A stretch of 60,261 nucleotides of DNA from Rhodospirillales bacterium (lineage in GTDB: Bacteria > Pseudomonadota > Gammaproteobacteria > Steroidobacterales > JAHEKG01), in the NCBI GenBank assembly GCA_024638475.1, contig JAHEKG010000002.1, positions 1-60,261 of the forward strand, written 5' to 3'. The position numbers were made by a program, and so were the translations under genes. This document shows positions 29,183-34,697 of this stretch, piece after piece. How positions within the stretch are numbered: the first letter of the stretch is position 1; each line of letters opens with the position of its first letter. Below the pieces are notes generated by a model. The model ran no database searches. It was not told the origin of the DNA and saw only the letters and a list, made by a program, of their open reading frames with translations.

Positions 29183-30736
29183 CTAGTGCGTAAGGGATTT
29201 GATCTCCGCAAGCAGCGCTTGCATCGCCGCCGGCTTACGGAAACAACTGGTAAAACGGGCTTTGTCCTCAGCCGATAATTTTGATGCCGTGAGTGCCACG
29301 ATTGGCTTCGCGTAACCGCGTTTACGCAGATCCTCGGCCGCTTCCACACCGCTCATTCCTGGCAGGTTGCAGTCCATTAATACGATGTCCGGTTCATAGG
29401 CCAAGACTTTTTCCATCGCCTCGCGGCCGTTCTTCGCCACGATAAGTCCATAACCCGCCCGGTGGAGGTAGTACTCGGCCAATGCCAGCATATCTTCATC
29501 GTCGTCGCACACCAGCACACTGACGGGTTTGGTGGCATAGGTTTCCTCCGGGGGCGGCGAAAGCGCGTCGGGCGGTGGGAGGGTATTACCCTCACCCAAT
29601 GCAATGGGAAGATTAACCGCAACCGTGCAGCCTTGGCCCAAGGTCGAGTCCAGTGAAATTTCGCCGCCCATCAGCTTCGCCAAGCGCAACGAAATCGTCA
29701 GCCCCAGGCCGGCACCGGTCTTGCCCGCGTGGGTGCCGCCGCGCTCGAATGCCCGAAACACCTTTTCTTGATCTTCGATGCTGATACCCGGCCCGCTGTC
29801 CGCCACCGAGGAGACCAGGCGGCCGTCCGCATAGGTCGTCACGAGCTGAATGCCACCCTCATTGGTGAACTTAATCGCGTTGCCCAGGAGGTTGATCAGG
29901 ATTTGCCGCAGGCGTACCTCGTCCGCATGAATGACTTGGGGCACCGCGGGGTCGATCGAGCACACGAACGAAAGCTCTTTGTCCGCGGCCATCGGCGCCA
30001 TCATCGCCGCTAAGTCCCCCAACAGCTCGTGGAGGTCGAAATCCGTCTCCTGGAGCTCGAGCTGGCCGGCGTCCAGCCTGGCATCGTCCAATACCGCCTC
30101 TACCAAGGCATTCAAATGGTGCGCGGATCGGGCAATCGCCTCCACGCTCTTGTGAACTGTGTTGGCCGGCGCGTTCGGTTCACCGGCTAGTTCGACATAG
30201 TTGATGATCGAGGCAAGCGGGGTCCGAAACTCGTGCGACATCATCGCAATAAACTGTCCCTTGGTGCTGCTACTGCGCTCGGCGTCCTTACGGTGATGGT
30301 CGAGCTCGGCTTTGGCTTCGACAAGCTCGCTAATCAGATCTCGCTGCCGGGCGATCAAGCGCTGTTGGCTGGCATGCAAGAGCTTCAACTCGTTAGCCGC
30401 TTGTTGCTTCGCCTGAATCGAGTCGTGGTCCTGCTTCGCGTCCAACAGCACGACGAAATGCCCGTCGTCGGTAGGCAGCGTGTGGACGTGTGCGACGACA
30501 CCGCCGCCAATGGACACGAACTCGAATATTCTGGGCTGACTATCCAGGGACTCGAACAGGTAGGGGGCATATGGCAGGAGATCGGTACCTGGACAGACCG
30601 ATTCCAGTCCGCACCACTGAGTCTCGCCCCAGGCTTCGATCAGATGAAAATCCGCATCGATCTTGACGCACGCTGGCCGCGTATCAACGGAAAAATTTTC
30701 CTGCAGGTAGTCGACGACTTGTTGCGGAAACCTCAT
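29183..30736 (-). CDS. soluble hybrid sensor histidine kinase/response regulator with an uncharacterised N-terminal domain
   Basis: 517 aa with no TM helix. A coiled coil precedes the H-box SHEFRTPL. The N-box is LLGNAIKFT, G1 is DSGPGI and G2 is GAGLGL. The C-terminal receiver reads VLVCDDDEDM...IVLMDCNLPGMSG. Confidence 0.9.
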   Translation of the reverse strand: MRFPQQVVDYLQENFSVDTRPACVKIDADFHLIEAWGETQWCGLESVCPGTDLLPYAPYLFESLDSQPRIFEFVSIGGGVVAHVHTLPTDDGHFVVLLDAKQDHDSIQAKQQAANELKLLHASQQRLIARQRDLISELVEAKAELDHHRKDAERSSSTKGQFIAMMSHEFRTPLASIINYVELAGEPNAPANTVHKSVEAIARSAHHLNALVEAVLDDARLDAGQLELQETDFDLHELLGDLAAMMAPMAADKELSFVCSIDPAVPQVIHADEVRLRQILINLLGNAIKFTNEGGIQLVTTYADGRLVSSVADSGPGISIEDQEKVFRAFERGGTHAGKTGAGLGLTISLRLAKLMGGEISLDSTLGQGCTVAVNLPIALGEGNTLPPPDALSPPPEETYATKPVSVLVCDDDEDMLALAEYYLHRAGYGLIVAKNGREAMEKVLAYEPDIVLMDCNLPGMSGVEAAEDLRKRGYAKPIVALTASKLSAEDKARFTSCFRKPAAMQALLAEIKSLTH

Positions 30737-30738
30737 CT

Positions 30739-31260
30739 TTACCGTTGCAGATCCTTGGCGACAATCGCTTCCGCCAATGCGATCAGGGCTGCTTCGACAT
30801 CGTCACCGGTTTTGGCACTGGTTCGGTACACCTTGCCGAACTCATCCCCCAGCGACTGGATGGTTTCGTCTGCGATCTGCCACAGCGTGGGCAAATCGCT
30901 CTTGTTCAGCAGAAGAACGTCCGGCCGTGCACCATAGCGCTCTTCGATTTGTTGCCGCAGTTTGCGGGCCGACGTTAGAGTCTGCGAGCGAGTACCGTCG
31001 GCGACGTAGACAAAACCCGCCGCCCCGCGAAGGTAGGCGAATTCCCGGGCCCCAAATTGCTCGGCCCCCGCCACGTCCCAAATGATCAGCTTGACCGAAA
31101 CATTCTCGCGGCCGAGTTGTATTTGCTTCGTGTCAATCTTGACCCCGACAGTCGTCAGGTACTTGTCGGAAAAATGGTTGTTGACGAACCGCTCGACGAC
31201 ACTAGTCTTGCCGACTGCGAAGTCTCCAACCACGCATACCTTAGTGGTCAGAGATGACAC
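30739..31260 (-). CDS. Ras/Rab-like small GTPase
   Basis: 173 aa with a GTG start. G1 is GDFAVGKT, G2 is the Thr in YLTTVG, G3 is WDVAGAEQF, G4 is NKSD and G5 is TSAKTG. Confidence 0.85.
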   Translation of the reverse strand: MSSLTTKVCVVGDFAVGKTSVVERFVNNHFSDKYLTTVGVKIDTKQIQLGRENVSVKLIIWDVAGAEQFGAREFAYLRGAAGFVYVADGTRSQTLTSARKLRQQIEERYGARPDVLLLNKSDLPTLWQIADETIQSLGDEFGKVYRTSAKTGDDVEAALIALAEAIVAKDLQR

Positions 31261-32957
31261 TAACGCCCGGCCCGGGCAACGAGAGCTAATTCAACAGTGG
31301 CTTTCCGTTGGCTGGTGTCGTAGGCGGAGGGGCCGGCCGCACCGTCCGCCGGCAGAATCGCGTCCGGCGTTACGCCAAACTCTGCCAGGACCGCGGCAAC
31401 GGCTTCCGCGCGACGAATCGCTAAGCGTTCGTTGGCCGCGGGATCGCCGGAGTTGTCGGTCGAGCCAATGACGGTAACGCGGACCCTACGGTCAGTGGTC
31501 GCGGCACGCGCCTCCAAATCGGCCAGCCGGCGGGAGATTGTTCGCAGGGCCGAATCGGCCGCGGGCGCCAGTGTGGTCCCGCTGACAAACTGAAAACTCG
31601 CCCCGGATAAGGCCTCGACTTCTGCCGTGAGCTGACGCAAATCGCTGTCGATGACGCCGTCGAAGTCGGCAATCTCTATGCCCGCCACATTCAGTACCCG
31701 CGCACGGGTGGCTTCGATCCACTGCTTGGGTGCCTCCCCGGTAACGGTGACAATGGCCCCGGCAATCGTGTAGTTCACGCTGTTCAAGTCACCGATTGCT
31801 TGACCGACGCGCCGAGCGACCAGCTCCGGTTCGAGCGATTGAAACGGCTGCAGCTCGGCGAACACCGATTCGACAGGGATCCCAATCTGCCTGGCCACTG
31901 CCGAGACGTCCATCGCCAGCGGATCGCGTAGCCCGCGCAGGACAATCTTGCCGCCGTCCCGGGCGGCTTCCGCGACGTAGATGCCAGGTGTATCGCGTAG
32001 CGCTGCCGTGAAGTTTTTCAGCTCATTGGCGTCGCTCCATCGCGAAAACCAAAAATAGCCAGCCGCAGCAAGCAGTAATAATCCAATGATGATCAGCGGC
32101 CAGGGGGTACGGCTAGCGTCACCTTCGGCACTTTGGATCGCCTGAAAGGCGAGGCATTTTTCGAGCTCGACCTCCACGCCTGGGACCGACGCCGTGTCAC
32201 CAGCATATTCTCTAACGGCATCGCCGTAGCGAAAATGAATTCGCTCTAGGATGGCGCTGAGCTCGTCGCGCAGCGACTTGGGCGGGACGCCGCGGATGAC
32301 ACACACCAGCAGGGCATGAGGGCCATGCACCGCCCAAAGAGTAAATTCGCCCATATCGGCCGATTCGAGGCGGCCCGTGCGATCCGGGGAAAAACTCTCT
32401 TTTACGAAATCCTGGATTGCGGTGAACATCGCTGACACGGCATCACTGTCCTTGATTTTGGACGCGGCGTGATGAACGTGTTCGATCAAGAGGCCGTTCT
32501 CGCGACTGATGAGGTACGCCTGTTCGATACGGTATAACAGCGTCCTCTGCAGGACGAAATCGCCGAACGGGATGCCCGCCCGGGCGGCCTGCAGCCGCCA
32601 CTTCAGCCCTTTGGGCGTCAGGCTATGCTCGACAGCCGCATTGATTTGCTGCGAAAACTCCCTGAGGGTATGTGTGATGGACTTGCGAATCGCGGGGCCC
32701 ATCACCGGATACAACGCATCGCTGTAGGTCTGCGGGTCGTTGTGGAAAGCTTGTTGCAAGCACTCACCCACCGGCGGCGTCAACGAGTCGACGAGTTCCG
32801 AGCCCCGCTGGTGACTTCTGTGGATCGCCTCCGGTAAGACATCGGCCACGTCGCTGGTGCGCGTTTCCGGCCGTTCCACTCGCTCGGCGATTGAATCCAG
32901 CGCTTGCTTTTCCGCGCCGAACAGCAAATCCTTCAGTTTATCGAGATCGTTCATCAA
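31260..32957 (-). CDS. bitopic membrane protein: cytoplasmic N-domain, one TM helix, BON-like repeats, C-terminal OmpA-like peptidoglycan-binding domain
   Basis: 565 aa. The TM helix is PWPLIIIGLLLLAAAGYFWF, at about residues 290-310. The C-terminus VTVIGSTDNSGDPAANERLAIRRAEAVAAVL is an OmpA_C-type motif. The stop overlaps the GTPase GTG start (TAGTG). Confidence 0.75.
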   Translation of the reverse strand: MMNDLDKLKDLLFGAEKQALDSIAERVERPETRTSDVADVLPEAIHRSHQRGSELVDSLTPPVGECLQQAFHNDPQTYSDALYPVMGPAIRKSITHTLREFSQQINAAVEHSLTPKGLKWRLQAARAGIPFGDFVLQRTLLYRIEQAYLISRENGLLIEHVHHAASKIKDSDAVSAMFTAIQDFVKESFSPDRTGRLESADMGEFTLWAVHGPHALLVCVIRGVPPKSLRDELSAILERIHFRYGDAVREYAGDTASVPGVEVELEKCLAFQAIQSAEGDASRTPWPLIIIGLLLLAAAGYFWFSRWSDANELKNFTAALRDTPGIYVAEAARDGGKIVLRGLRDPLAMDVSAVARQIGIPVESVFAELQPFQSLEPELVARRVGQAIGDLNSVNYTIAGAIVTVTGEAPKQWIEATRARVLNVAGIEIADFDGVIDSDLRQLTAEVEALSGASFQFVSGTTLAPAADSALRTISRRLADLEARAATTDRRVRVTVIGSTDNSGDPAANERLAIRRAEAVAAVLAEFGVTPDAILPADGAAGPSAYDTSQRKATVELALVARAGR

Positions 32958-32974: not shown

Positions 32975-33535
32975 CTACCCCTTAGGCAACTTGAAATCCT
33001 TCTTGAGCCTCAGGGCGACCTCGGAAAGCAGCGCAGCCAAATCCTCGCGACCCAACTTCGCCTCGGCCAACTGTGTTTGGCCTTGGAGGCTCGCGTCAAA
33101 CTGATCGGAGGTTTCTTGGATGGTGGCCAACAGCTCTTCGCCTTGGTCTTTCACGGAAGCTCGAAGTTGCCGATTCTCCGATTCGATCTGCTCTTCGACT
33201 TCCTCGAACCAGCCTTCCACTTGACGAGCCAGGCTATCGATATCCTTCGACGTCTGTTTGTTCTCGTCCGTTCGCGCCTTACGTTCCATTTTGAACTGGT
33301 CCGTTAGCTTGTCCAATTCGCGTTTCGTGTAGGCGTCCAACCGTTCCAGCCGCTTGTCGACATGCTTCGATAGCTGCTCAATGGACTTGGTCAGGCTTTG
33401 CTCCATCTCTGCAAAGCGCTTCTCGTAGTCACGCATCTGGCCGCCGAACAATATCTGCCGGATTTGATCGACATTGCCCTCCAAGTCCTCGGTAGCGCTG
33501 GATTGATCTTGTTTCTTATTGTCTCTGCGTGCCAT
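32975..33535 (-). CDS. hypothetical coiled-coil protein
   Basis: 186 aa, highly charged with heptad-like repeats throughout and no TM helix. Its N-terminal motif IRQILFGGQMRDYEKRF resembles the N-terminus of the downstream OmpA-domain protein. Confidence 0.6.
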   Translation of the reverse strand: MARRDNKKQDQSSATEDLEGNVDQIRQILFGGQMRDYEKRFAEMEQSLTKSIEQLSKHVDKRLERLDAYTKRELDKLTDQFKMERKARTDENKQTSKDIDSLARQVEGWFEEVEEQIESENRQLRASVKDQGEELLATIQETSDQFDASLQGQTQLAEAKLGREDLAALLSEVALRLKKDFKLPKG

Positions 33536-33544
33536 GCCCTGCCC

Positions 33545-34273
33545 CTAGCTCTTTTCTTCGATCGGCGTTTCTCGCTCCACTCGGTACCCGTGCTGATAAA
33601 CGGAAATTAGCTTCCAGCCCGTGCCCTCGTTTAAGCGTAACTTTTTTCGCAGGCGGCTGACGTGTGTGTCAACCGTCCGGGTTGAAACGTTATTGTAGTC
33701 GATCCCCCATATCGCCTCTAGGATATGGTTGCGGGATAATAGTTTACCGGCATTCCGAAATAACAGTACTGCCAACCCGAACTCCCTATTCGTGAGAGTT
33801 ATCTCCTCTCCATTCAAGATCACGACTTGGTTGTTGATATCGAGAAGATAAGGCTCGGCCTCAAAGGTATTGTCCGGTGATATTCCAATGCCCGTGCGGC
33901 GAAGAATTGCGGCGACCCTGGCCAGCAACTCCCCGCGCCGCATCGGTTTTACTAAATAATCGTCGGCCCCCGCTTCCAAGGCTCTAACGATACTTTGCTC
34001 CTTGTCCTTGACCGTGGCGACTACTACCGGCGTATTATCGTTCAATTCACCGCGCAGCTTGCGGAGCACCTCGATGCCACTGAGCTCGGGCACTATCCAA
34101 TCGAGAATGTAAATGTCAAAGCTGTCGCGCCGAACCGCCCGCAGGAATCCGGCTGATTCCAGAAAACTGTTGACCGTATAGCCTGCGTCCTTCAGCCACA
34201 GGCTGACGATTTCAGCCTGGTCCGGATCATCTTCGAGAATTGCGATGCGTAGGTGATTTTCGGCGGCATGCAA
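33545..34273 (-). CDS. OmpR/PhoB-family response regulator
   Basis: The receiver reads IAILEDDPDQ...IYILDWIVPELSG. The winged helix reads LTNREFGLAVLL...VDTHVSRLRKKL...GYRV. I place the start at the TTG at 34273, with GAGGG 7 nt upstream. The longer ORF-track version (to 34492) overlaps the Hpt gene. Confidence 0.85.
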   Translation of the reverse strand: MHAAENHLRIAILEDDPDQAEIVSLWLKDAGYTVNSFLESAGFLRAVRRDSFDIYILDWIVPELSGIEVLRKLRGELNDNTPVVVATVKDKEQSIVRALEAGADDYLVKPMRRGELLARVAAILRRTGIGISPDNTFEAEPYLLDINNQVVILNGEEITLTNREFGLAVLLFRNAGKLLSRNHILEAIWGIDYNNVSTRTVDTHVSRLRKKLRLNEGTGWKLISVYQHGYRVERETPIEEKS

Positions 34274-34394
34274 TCTGCGGCCCTCGGATACGAATGGGTG
34301 GTTGCCAGGTATTGTACCGTAAGGCTTCAGAAAATCGGCTATTTCACCGGCGTACGGGCCTGCGGGACGTTCTTGCAGCGTGTGGCGGCACCTA

Positions 34395-34697
34395 TTACGC
34401 GAGTTTGACGTGCTGAAGGTAGCGCTCGAGTTCGGCGAGTAAGGCCGCAACTTCAGCCGCGTGGCGCGATCCGGCGGCGCTCTCCAGCTCACCGCCTAGT
34501 CGCGAGATTTCGTCGAGTCCATAGGCGGCACCGGAGCCAAAGAGTTTATGCGCGGTCAATACGATGGACTCGAAGTCAGCGTCTGCCAACGAAGAGTTGA
34601 GCTGCGCCAGCTCCTCCTCGCGGCGCTTTAGGTATTGCGCCATCAGATATCTGGCGAACGGATCAGCGACCGTTATCGGCGTGCCTTGATCATCCAT
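34395..34697 (-). CDS. histidine phosphotransfer (Hpt) domain protein
   Basis: 100 aa, predicted helical. The AHKLFGSGAAYGL motif fits the Hpt HxxKG-type phospho-His context. Confidence 0.75.
   Translation of the reverse strand: MDDQGTPITVADPFARYLMAQYLKRREEELAQLNSSLADADFESIVLTAHKLFGSGAAYGLDEISRLGGELESAAGSRHAAEVAALLAELERYLQHVKLA

Follow-up and report, generated by a model that had tools for sequence, protein, structure and literature searches.

A probable Group 1 Rup GTPase in a four-gene signalling cassette of an uncultured sediment gammaproteobacterium

The Ras-superfamily GTPases of prokaryotes have been divided into two families, MglA and Rup, the former being separated from the latter by the absence of the aspartate of the G3 motif (Wuichet & Sogaard-Andersen, Genome Biol Evol 2014, PMC4316618). 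The Group 1 Rup proteins, examples of which are mlr3243 of Mesorhizobium loti, Npun_F1891 of Nostoc punctiforme and sce5816 of Sorangium cellulosum, are the bacterial proteins most like eukaryotic Rab, Ras, Rho and Ran and feature in hypotheses about how those families arose (PMC4316618). Their G motifs are close to those of the eukaryotic superfamily, with the conserved G3 glutamine absent, and their genes are found next to those for a coiled-coil protein (DUFY), for a DUFX protein that often has a transmembrane (TM) helix and an OmpA domain, and for a signalling output, typically a histidine kinase or a cyclic di-GMP enzyme, whose N-terminal region carries an invariant glutamine proposed as possibly being supplied in trans (PMC4316618). 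Here we describe a gene, rup, in a 60,261-nucleotide stretch of DNA (contig JAHEKG010000002.1 of assembly GCA_024638475.1; this whole stretch is hereafter the window) from a Woeseiaceae-like metagenome-assembled genome of an uncultured sediment gammaproteobacterium. We conclude that rup very probably encodes a Group 1 Rup GTPase, the nucleotide switch of a four-gene cassette for DUFY, DUFX-TM-OmpA, Rup and a signalling output. The copy studied here sits within a His-Asp-His-Asp relay consisting of a hybrid kinase, an Hpt protein and an OmpR-type regulator.

The initial annotation of the window had described an open reading frame with a GTG start whose product resembled Rab and Ras more than Era, Obg or the translation factors, had five recognizable G boxes, and carried alanine in place of the catalytic glutamine. 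The reading frame is present, is 173 codons long and lies on the minus strand (no strand had been given). Its product matched the Pfam Ras model over residues 7-166 with an E value of 3.2e-30 (105 bits) and, more weakly, the Roc (E 1.5e-24) and Arf (E 3.9e-9) models, as against about 4e-3 at best for Era and Obg in the Pfam/NCBIfam scan. Its closest solved structures among all PDB chains were Rab27B, Sec4, Rab1B and Rab8A (E 2e-23 to 1e-19), so that the proposed kinship with Rab and Ras was borne out. The G boxes likewise lay where they had been placed: G12-D-F-A-V-G-K-T19, T37 within YLTTVG, W61-D-V-A-G-A66-E, N119-K-S-D122 and T147-S-A-K150. In the HMMER alignment WDVAGAEQF stood opposite WDTAGQERF of Rab27B, and Ala66 is therefore the equivalent of Gln78 of Rab27B and Gln61 of Ras, as the annotation had supposed. 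By the same token, the pairing of GDFAVGKT with GDSGVGKT of Rab makes Phe14 the equivalent of Ras Gly12 and Ala15 that of Gly13.

That the best solved-structure matches were all eukaryotic Rabs would suit a recent transfer from a eukaryote, or a contaminant in the assembly, and we judge such an origin extremely improbable. Relatives are encoded at at least 597 loci in bacterial genomes, orthologues with 45-81% identity occupy the same bacterial operon in many phyla, the gene overlaps the stop codon of a bacterial neighbour, and the protein has no C-terminal cysteine for prenylation. Close homologues bear the NCBI name "Rab family GTPase [Woeseiaceae bacterium]." The host assembly is 82% complete in 384 contigs and contains rup in a single copy, and the only datasets listed as containing this DNA are sediment and mangrove DNA metagenomes, with no RNA dataset among them.

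Three sets of sequences were used for comparison. Gene order was studied in a same-order set of 40 genomes, 15 with a Rup orthologue and 25 without, from which 13 loci were fetched. Residues were counted in 133 close orthologues of Rup and in 80 diverse loci, the latter kept from the wide scan of one genome per species that yielded the at least 597 loci mentioned above.

Membership of Group 1 is supported by the protein and by its surroundings. The 173 residues form a single Ras domain, within the range of 150-240 residues; the G3 aspartate is retained (D62-V-A-G65, with D62 and G65 invariant in the 133 orthologues); and the catalytic glutamine is missing, not one being found at this position among the 133 close and 80 diverse sequences. 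Genes for DUFY and for DUFX with its TM helix and OmpA domain are adjacent, as is that for a signalling output, here a hybrid kinase, with an invariant glutamine (Q112) near its N-terminus. No Robl_LC7 or MglB match in Pfam or NCBIfam was detected among the operon proteins other than Hpt. The Mesorhizobium loci provide an indirect link to a named family member: Table S2 of the 2014 paper lists M. loti mlr3243 as Rup<OmpA:DUFX<DUFY, of 168 residues (PMC4316618), and our loci from this genus contain a cassette of the mlr3243 type with a Rup of 163-168 residues that is 49-50% identical to the window protein. Since the window agrees with every Group 1 Rup point, the missing glutamine is a published trait of the family and not a peculiarity of this gene.

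We rejected assignment to the MglA family, given the presence of D62, the absence of the glutamine and the lack of an adjacent stand-alone MglB gene. A PF00071 search of three genomes from the Myxococcota and Desulfobacterota returned four Rup-sized Ras-family matches and three weak ones inside large open reading frames, none of them identifiable as MglA.

Substitution of either Gly12 or Gln61 in Ras blocks GAP-assisted hydrolysis (GAP, GTPase-activating protein) and locks Ras in the GTP form. In the Rup family both of these positions are altered. The column equivalent to Gln61 holds A (79), S (30), T (20), R (2) and K (2) in the close orthologues and E (31), T (14), S (12), A (8), K (7), N (5), R (2) and H (1) in the diverse loci, and the residue equivalent to Gly12 is phenylalanine in 130/133 and 78/80 sequences, respectively. 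Meanwhile, the nucleotide and Mg contacts G12, G17, K18, T19, T37, D62, G65, N119, K120, D122, S148 and A149 are invariant. Thus, the two positions at which change disables GAP-assisted hydrolysis in Ras have been altered family-wide and the binding residues have been kept; judged by these residues, the GTPase is competent for nucleotide binding. The Phe14 signature is an addition of the present analysis, no mention of it being found in the accessible part of the 2014 paper (PMC4316618).

These counts bear on the possibility that Rup is a hydrolysis-poor switch, one that would bind GTP and hardly hydrolyse it, its state depending on exchange, the cellular GTP/GDP ratio or sequestration, in the manner of Rnd/RhoE-type proteins or pseudo-GTPase scaffolds. 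Phenylalanine at the Gly12 position together with a residue other than glutamine at the Gln61 position throughout the family would fit such a switch, as would the variability of position 66 (A/S/T/E/K/N/R/H), which looks free of catalytic constraint. The absence from G1 of the asparagine of the K+-activated HAS-GTPases also points in this direction. Set against this, T19, T37, D62 and G65, which contact Mg and the gamma-phosphate, are invariant, suggesting a working nucleotide cycle; the neighbouring genes encode two conserved candidate regulators; and some wider relatives (P0242, P0245 and P0252) keep G-Q in G3, so that the ancestral state was probably hydrolytic. On balance we consider a hydrolysis-poor switch rather unlikely.

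The wider relatives that keep G-Q, in the form W-D-I-[HYN]-G-Q-D, are metagenomic proteins only (P0271 and P0281 in addition to the three just named), and their existence indicates that loss of the glutamine is a feature of this clade and not of all Rup-like proteins. A K+-dependent mechanism of the MnmE/FeoB/Era type was also tried and rejected. HAS-GTPases combine a hydrophobic residue at the glutamine position with an asparagine in G1 (GxxNxGKS) and have an Era/TrmE-type G domain. Ala66 is hydrophobic, but Ala15 stands where the G1 asparagine would be expected, and the Era/Obg match is poor, as noted above. As a side observation, Rup-like G domains (40-48% identical) are fused to TIR domains (PF13676) in P0244, P0246, P0247, P0251 and about 20 other proteins; the TIR domain is mostly N-terminal and the glutamine position mostly E or A. 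These fusions may represent a branch of the family that is engaged in conflict or defence.

The cassette is conserved as a unit. The order Hpt, regulator, coiled-coil protein, DUFX, Rup and kinase is kept in 13/13 same-order loci, and a profile of the cytoplasmic region of DUFX found a match in 14 of the 15 Rup-positive genomes, always directly upstream of rup, and in none of the 25 Rup-negative ones; in the single Rup-positive genome that gave no match the contig starts at the rup gene. The 80 diverse loci come from the Gamma-, Alpha- and Betaproteobacteria (Woeseiaceae, Beggiatoaceae, Methylococcales, Lysobacterales, Mesorhizobium, Rhizobium, Bradyrhizobium and Variovorax) as well as from the Acidobacteriota, Armatimonadota, Kiritimatiellia, Myxococcota and Desulfobacterota. 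Nearly all of them whose contig reaches far enough show the succession of coiled-coil protein, DUFX, Rup and a protein with the kinase-type N-terminal domain. Coordinates of the features in the window are collected in Table 1.

Table 1. Features of the rup locus and their positions in the window
Feature	Coordinates	Strand	Basis and remarks
rup, 173-residue Ras/Rab-like small GTPase (probable Group 1 Rup)	30739..31260	minus	Pfam Ras and PDB matches; single copy in genome
G1 P-loop, G12-D-F-A-V-G-K-T19	31204..31227	minus	Aligned to Rab27B GDSGVGKT
Phe14 codon, Ras Gly12 equivalent	31219-31221	minus	Alignment to Rab27B
G3, D62-V-A-G-A66	31063..31077	minus	Ala66 codon GCC at 31063-31065, Ras Gln61 equivalent
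G4, N119-K-S-D122, guanine specificity	30895..30906	minus	N, K and D invariant in 133 sequences
G5, S148-A-K150	30811..30819	minus	S and A invariant in 133 sequences
Hpt phosphotransfer protein, 100 residues	34395..34697	minus	Operon head in 13/13 same-order loci; H-K-L-F-G-S-G motif; identified without Pfam
OmpR/PhoB-type response regulator	33545..34273	minus	Pfam Response_reg and Trans_reg_C; likely TTG start at 34273
DUFY, 186-residue cytoplasmic coiled-coil protein	32975..33535	minus	Weak coiled-coil-type Pfam matches; directly upstream of DUFX in 13/13 loci
DUFX-TM-OmpA protein, 565 residues	31260..32957	minus	Pfam OmpA 460-550, E 1.3e-10; TM helix 286-304
Longin/Roadblock-fold domain of DUFX (modelled), residues about 141-273	32139..32537	minus	AlphaFold2 model, Foldseek, VIA-align
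Hybrid histidine kinase, 517 residues, soluble	29183..30736	minus	Pfam HisKA 159-224, HATPase_c 272-378, Response_reg 407-510
Kinase N-terminal input module (modelled)	30317..30736	minus	N-cap helix 5-19, PAS core 19-100, signalling helix 101-139; Gln112 codon 30401-30403

The six genes, for Hpt, the OmpR/PhoB-type regulator, the coiled-coil protein, DUFX-TM-OmpA, the GTPase and the hybrid kinase, are tightly packed on the minus strand. Both junctions of rup read in the DNA as the initial annotation had it: the stop codon of the upstream OmpA-domain gene (TAG, 31262-31260) overlaps the GTG of the GTPase (31260-31258) by one nucleotide (TAGTG), and the GTPase stop codon (TAA, 30741-30739) is followed by a two-nucleotide spacer, AG, and then by the ATG of the kinase at 30736. 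From these junctions that annotation had gone on to propose a fixed stoichiometry with both neighbours, which over-reads them. Stop and start codons overlap at many DUFX/Rup and Rup/output junctions but not at all of them, the spacing between the OmpA-domain gene and the GTPase gene ranging in 13 relatives from a 4-nucleotide overlap to a 62-nucleotide gap; co-translation of rup with its neighbours is therefore plausible.

Two further observations concern the head of the operon. The open reading frame of the regulator extends to 34492, and its homology in tblastn begins at residue 74-81; nothing in the orthologues corresponds to the first 73-80 codons of the frame (33545-34492), which share 98 nucleotides with the Hpt gene. 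The true start is probably the TTG listed in Table 1. In addition, most same-order relatives have, between Hpt and the OmpR-type regulator, a gene for a 407-438-residue REC/Ser-Thr protein kinase (Pfam Response_reg and Pkinase, E about 1e-47; for example L014:3342-4637 and L023:573-1889, with the same position in L015-L025). This gene is absent from the window (34273-34395) and from locus L013.

The upstream member of the pair that flanks Rup, DUFX, consists of a 285-residue cytoplasmic region without a Pfam match, one TM helix and a periplasmic OmpA-like peptidoglycan-binding domain. An AlphaFold2 model of residues 1-290, built from a 13-sequence alignment, had a predicted local distance difference test (pLDDT) value of about 75 over residues 141-270 (block means 53-89). 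In the model, long helices are followed by elements in the order alpha-beta-beta-alpha-beta-beta-beta-alpha that characterizes the longin/Roadblock fold, with helices at 131-139, 171-189 and 227-249 and strands at 142-151, 157-162, 199-202, 205-211 and 215-223. Foldseek against the PDB retrieved MglB (1J3W, 3T12), the TRAPP subunits Bet5 and Trs23, LAMTOR/Ragulator, the Rag C-terminal domain and Mon1-Ccz1, with E values of 7e-5 to 1e-3. An independent all-against-representatives comparison with VIA-align gave Z scores of 8.0-12.6 for residues 141-273, and the top 50 matches were essentially all of the longin/Roadblock type. The cytoplasmic part of DUFX thus models as holding a longin/Roadblock fold: on the evidence of both aligners the "unknown domain" of the 2014 paper would contain one despite the absence of a sequence-detectable MglB.

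Proteins with the longin/Roadblock fold serve as GAPs or guanine nucleotide exchange factors (GEFs) for MglA, Rab and Rag GTPases. Hence DUFX may act on Rup much as MglB acts on MglA, being its GAP or GEF and lending catalytic help from, for example, Arg91 or Gln182. Besides the agreement of the two aligners on MglB, TRAPP, Mon1-Ccz1 and Ragulator, this would account for the strict phyletic co-occurrence and adjacency of DUFX and Rup, often with overlapping stop and start codons, and for the conservation of R91 (in G-P-A-I-R) and Q182 (in A-I-Q-D-F), both of which are invariant in the 13 same-order orthologues and predominant in the 80 diverse loci. The reservations are that some loci have R, E, G, S or T in place of Q182, that the helical region with R91 is modelled at low confidence (pLDDT 41-56), and that MglB itself, in the work on 3T12, reportedly supplies no catalytic residue and only repositions the arginine and glutamine of MglA, the second of which Rup does not have. 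We therefore put forward an MglB-like role of DUFX only tentatively.

We looked at three other aspects of DUFX and its partners. The idea that the G3 residue covaries with DUFX Q182 or with kinase N115 was considered and set aside: P0245 and P0252, which have G-Q, contain A-I-R-D-F, but so do relatives without G-Q, and the pattern is anecdotal and confounded by phylogeny. DUFY and DUFX share a short motif, phi-D-K-phi-+-x-phi-L-F-G, in residues 20-45 of DUFY (33401-33478) and 3-28 of DUFX (32874-32951), which hhalign aligned over 26 columns with an E value of 1.9e-4 and a probability of 47%. Finally, many database entries appear as "DUFX-OmpA-Rup" fusion proteins. Among those checked that span full DUFX, P0264 is the only one with a second TM helix (P0245, P0253 and P0273, for instance, have none), and P0253 and P0273 have long arginine-rich stretches like those of out-of-frame translation of GC-rich DNA. 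Since Rup would be periplasmic if there were no second TM helix, we regard these fusions as probable gene-calling artefacts and did not use them as Rosetta-stone evidence; they could mislead surveys of domain architecture.

On the other side of Rup, the first ~140 residues of the hybrid kinase have no Pfam match. Among the 1.84 billion representative proteins searched, 156 proved homologous to this input module at E <= 1e-3. Its AlphaFold2 model had a pLDDT of 93.8 and contained a five-stranded core at residues 19-100, and the top 50 VIA-align matches were all of the PAS family (PAS/LOV/PYP and phytochrome sensory modules), with Z scores of 8.0-10.5 and root-mean-square deviations of about 2 A over about 80 residues; Foldseek gave weaker PAS matches. 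The N-terminus of the kinase is accordingly modelled as a PAS fold followed by a helix with an invariant glutamine. Across 89 homologues of the module no column except that of this residue, Q112, is invariant (Q111, N115 and G37 exceed 90%), and in a second alignment, of 144 sequences, Q accounts for 141/143 residues in the column.

The module precedes not only hybrid and plain histidine kinases but also class III cyclases, a sigma-54 activator, a SpoIIE phosphatase and an HD-GYP protein, and the motif QQxxN(E/D) is kept whatever the output domain. Such a distribution would be expected if the Rup signal is received by this domain. All Mesorhizobium loci have the module joined to class III adenylate/guanylate cyclases (L105:9496-10563, L092, L102 and L103), and a Kiritimatiellia metagenome-assembled genome has it joined to a sigma-54 enhancer-binding protein (L084:9514-11211); the cyclase and sigma-54 outputs extend the published list of Group 1 Rup outputs (PMC4316618). 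A stand-alone module of 166-170 residues lies directly upstream of rup in the large sulfur bacteria Thioploca and Parabeggiatoa (L059:2307-2804, L060:8205-8702 and L077:4611-5120). Two of these loci, L059 and L060, have a full kinase downstream of rup as well, and the contig of L077 stops just after rup; the one stand-alone module scanned, that of L059, had no Pfam match. P0265 joins Rup, the input module and a histidine kinase in one protein, and on sequence grounds it and the Rup/HD-GYP fusions P0266, P0279 and P0280 appear more credible than the DUFX-OmpA-Rup fusions.

The conservation of Q112 invites the idea that the effector is also the GAP. Gln112, possibly with Gln111 and Asn115, would enter the active site of Rup in trans, so that binding to the output would also end the signal. 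TBC RabGAPs act with a glutamine finger, and RapGAP and TSC2 with an asparagine thumb. For Group 1 Rup, supply of the glutamine in trans has already been proposed (PMC4316618). Its invariance and the near-invariance of Q111 and N115 are consistent with this role, as is the persistence of the motif across output types. In addition, Q111, Q112, N115 and E116 fall at heptad positions b, c, f and g in the register of the downstream helix, that is, on its exposed face, and a place for Q112 in the core of the coiled coil was accordingly not supported. The heptad register can shift near PAS junctions, however, and the motif stands three turns after the PAS core, which ends in D99-A-(T/S), presumably the PAS "DIT" junction; it could instead serve intramolecular signalling or packing against the PAS core. 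We therefore treat a GAP role of the effector as a possibility that falls well short of being probable. On the same helix, residues 127-133 (30338-30358) form a seven-residue insertion relative to about 130 of the 144 homologues, also found in L013. The insertion is exactly one heptad long, as would fit a coiled coil that has kept its register.

Taken together, these observations suggest the following scheme. Anchored to peptidoglycan, DUFX, probably together with DUFY, would report the state of the envelope to Rup through its longin/Roadblock domain and thereby set the nucleotide state. Rup-GTP would then bind the PAS-like input module of the kinase and alter its autophosphorylation and the flux through the phosphorelay to the OmpR-type regulator. 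Hydrolysis by Rup would be slow unless a partner supplied the missing catalytic group, since the protein has no glutamine of its own and a bulky phenylalanine occupies the place where an arginine finger would enter; completion of hydrolysis by a partner or an alternative residue, to which the initial annotation had also pointed, is a published hypothesis for Group 1 Rup (PMC4316618). Supply of the glutamine in trans by kinase Q112 and an MglB-like role of DUFX seem to us about equally likely, and a hydrolysis-poor switch slightly less so.

Four points weigh against our view of the locus. The literature searched, which took in few of the subscription journals, contained no laboratory work on binding, nucleotide state or hydrolysis for any Group 1 Rup. 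The model of DUFX is of moderate overall confidence (pLDDT 62.9). Sharing of a fold is by itself no proof of GAP or GEF activity, and an OmpA-like domain is a sign of peptidoglycan anchoring, not of sensing.

A bolder version of the scheme, improbable as a whole in our estimation, is a cascade resembling that of receptor, G protein and effector. The longin/Roadblock domain of DUFX would act as an exchange factor and load Rup with GTP upon a change in the envelope; Rup-GTP would dock on the input module, which kinases, cyclases, sigma-54 activators and phosphatases have in common; and the module would insert Gln112 into a site that Phe14 closes to arginine-finger GAPs, making each activation self-terminating. 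If true, this would be a catalytic arrangement undescribed for any member of the Ras superfamily, and it would be found in the bacterial proteins most closely related to Rab and Ras.

This copy of rup is one more member of a computationally described family and adds little on its own; the family as a whole is a good target for experiment. The two fold assignments, longin/Roadblock in DUFX and PAS in the N-terminus of the output, are new relative to the accessible part of the 2014 paper (PMC4316618). Along with them come, as useful by-products, the family-wide residue statistics, the Phe14 signature and a list of candidate trans-acting residues (kinase Q111, Q112 and N115; DUFX R91 and Q182). 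How a Ras-like switch works without the glutamine and with phenylalanine at the Gly12 position bears on the evolution of GAP mechanisms, and the Rup system could reveal how the bacterial cell wall is linked to two-component and cyclic-nucleotide signalling.

How, then, does the locus compare with known systems? With the eukaryotic Rabs (Rab27B, Sec4, Rab1B and Rab8A) Rup shares five colinear G boxes and the switch I sequence T-T-V-G. It differs from them in having alanine for the catalytic glutamine and phenylalanine for the Rab serine at the Gly12 position, in having no cysteine for prenylation and in being encoded in a bacterial operon. The working model for Rup follows the pairs Rap1-RapGAP, Rheb-TSC2 and Rab-TBC, in which the GTPase's own glutamine is absent or unused and a carboxamide is provided in trans: Rap has Thr61 in place of the glutamine, and Rab-TBC uses a dual finger of arginine and glutamine. 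No RapGAP, TSC2 or TBC domain was detected in the scanned set of operon proteins, and the candidate donors here are instead the helix after the PAS core (Q112 and N115) or the longin/Roadblock protein (R91 and Q182).

In the actinobacterial conservons (CvnA-D, or Mfp), too, one operon couples a histidine kinase to a small GTPase and a Roadblock-fold protein. Their parts are a histidine-kinase-like protein, a Roadblock protein, a DUF742 protein and an MglA-type GTPase. The analogy to Group 1 Rup was drawn in the 2014 paper, according to which the conservon GTPase belongs to MglA Group 2, the kinase is membrane-bound and there is no response regulator (PMC4316618). In contrast, the kinase described here is soluble, has a PAS-like input and feeds an Hpt protein and an OmpR-type regulator.

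MglA-MglB of Myxococcus xanthus and Thermus thermophilus (3T12) is again a small GTPase with an adjacent Roadblock-fold regulator, and MglB was among the top matches of DUFX. MglA is said to keep its own catalytic glutamine and to have an intrinsic arginine finger. Unlike the stand-alone MglB, the Roadblock-like domain modelled here lies inside a 565-residue, peptidoglycan-anchored membrane protein and is undetectable by Pfam. By the published criterion (PMC4316618) MglA lacks the G3 aspartate, whereas Rup keeps it, lacks the glutamine and has phenylalanine at the Gly12 position.

Finally, the closest counterpart is Group 1 Rup itself. The G domain is the same, with the aspartate of DxxG and no G3 glutamine, and so is the neighbourhood, in which DUFY, DUFX-TM-OmpA, Rup and the output follow one another, the output carries an invariant glutamine and no MglB is detectable with Pfam. 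No difference breaks membership. What is specific to the lineage is that here the cassette is set inside a relay of Hpt, OmpR-type regulator and hybrid kinase.

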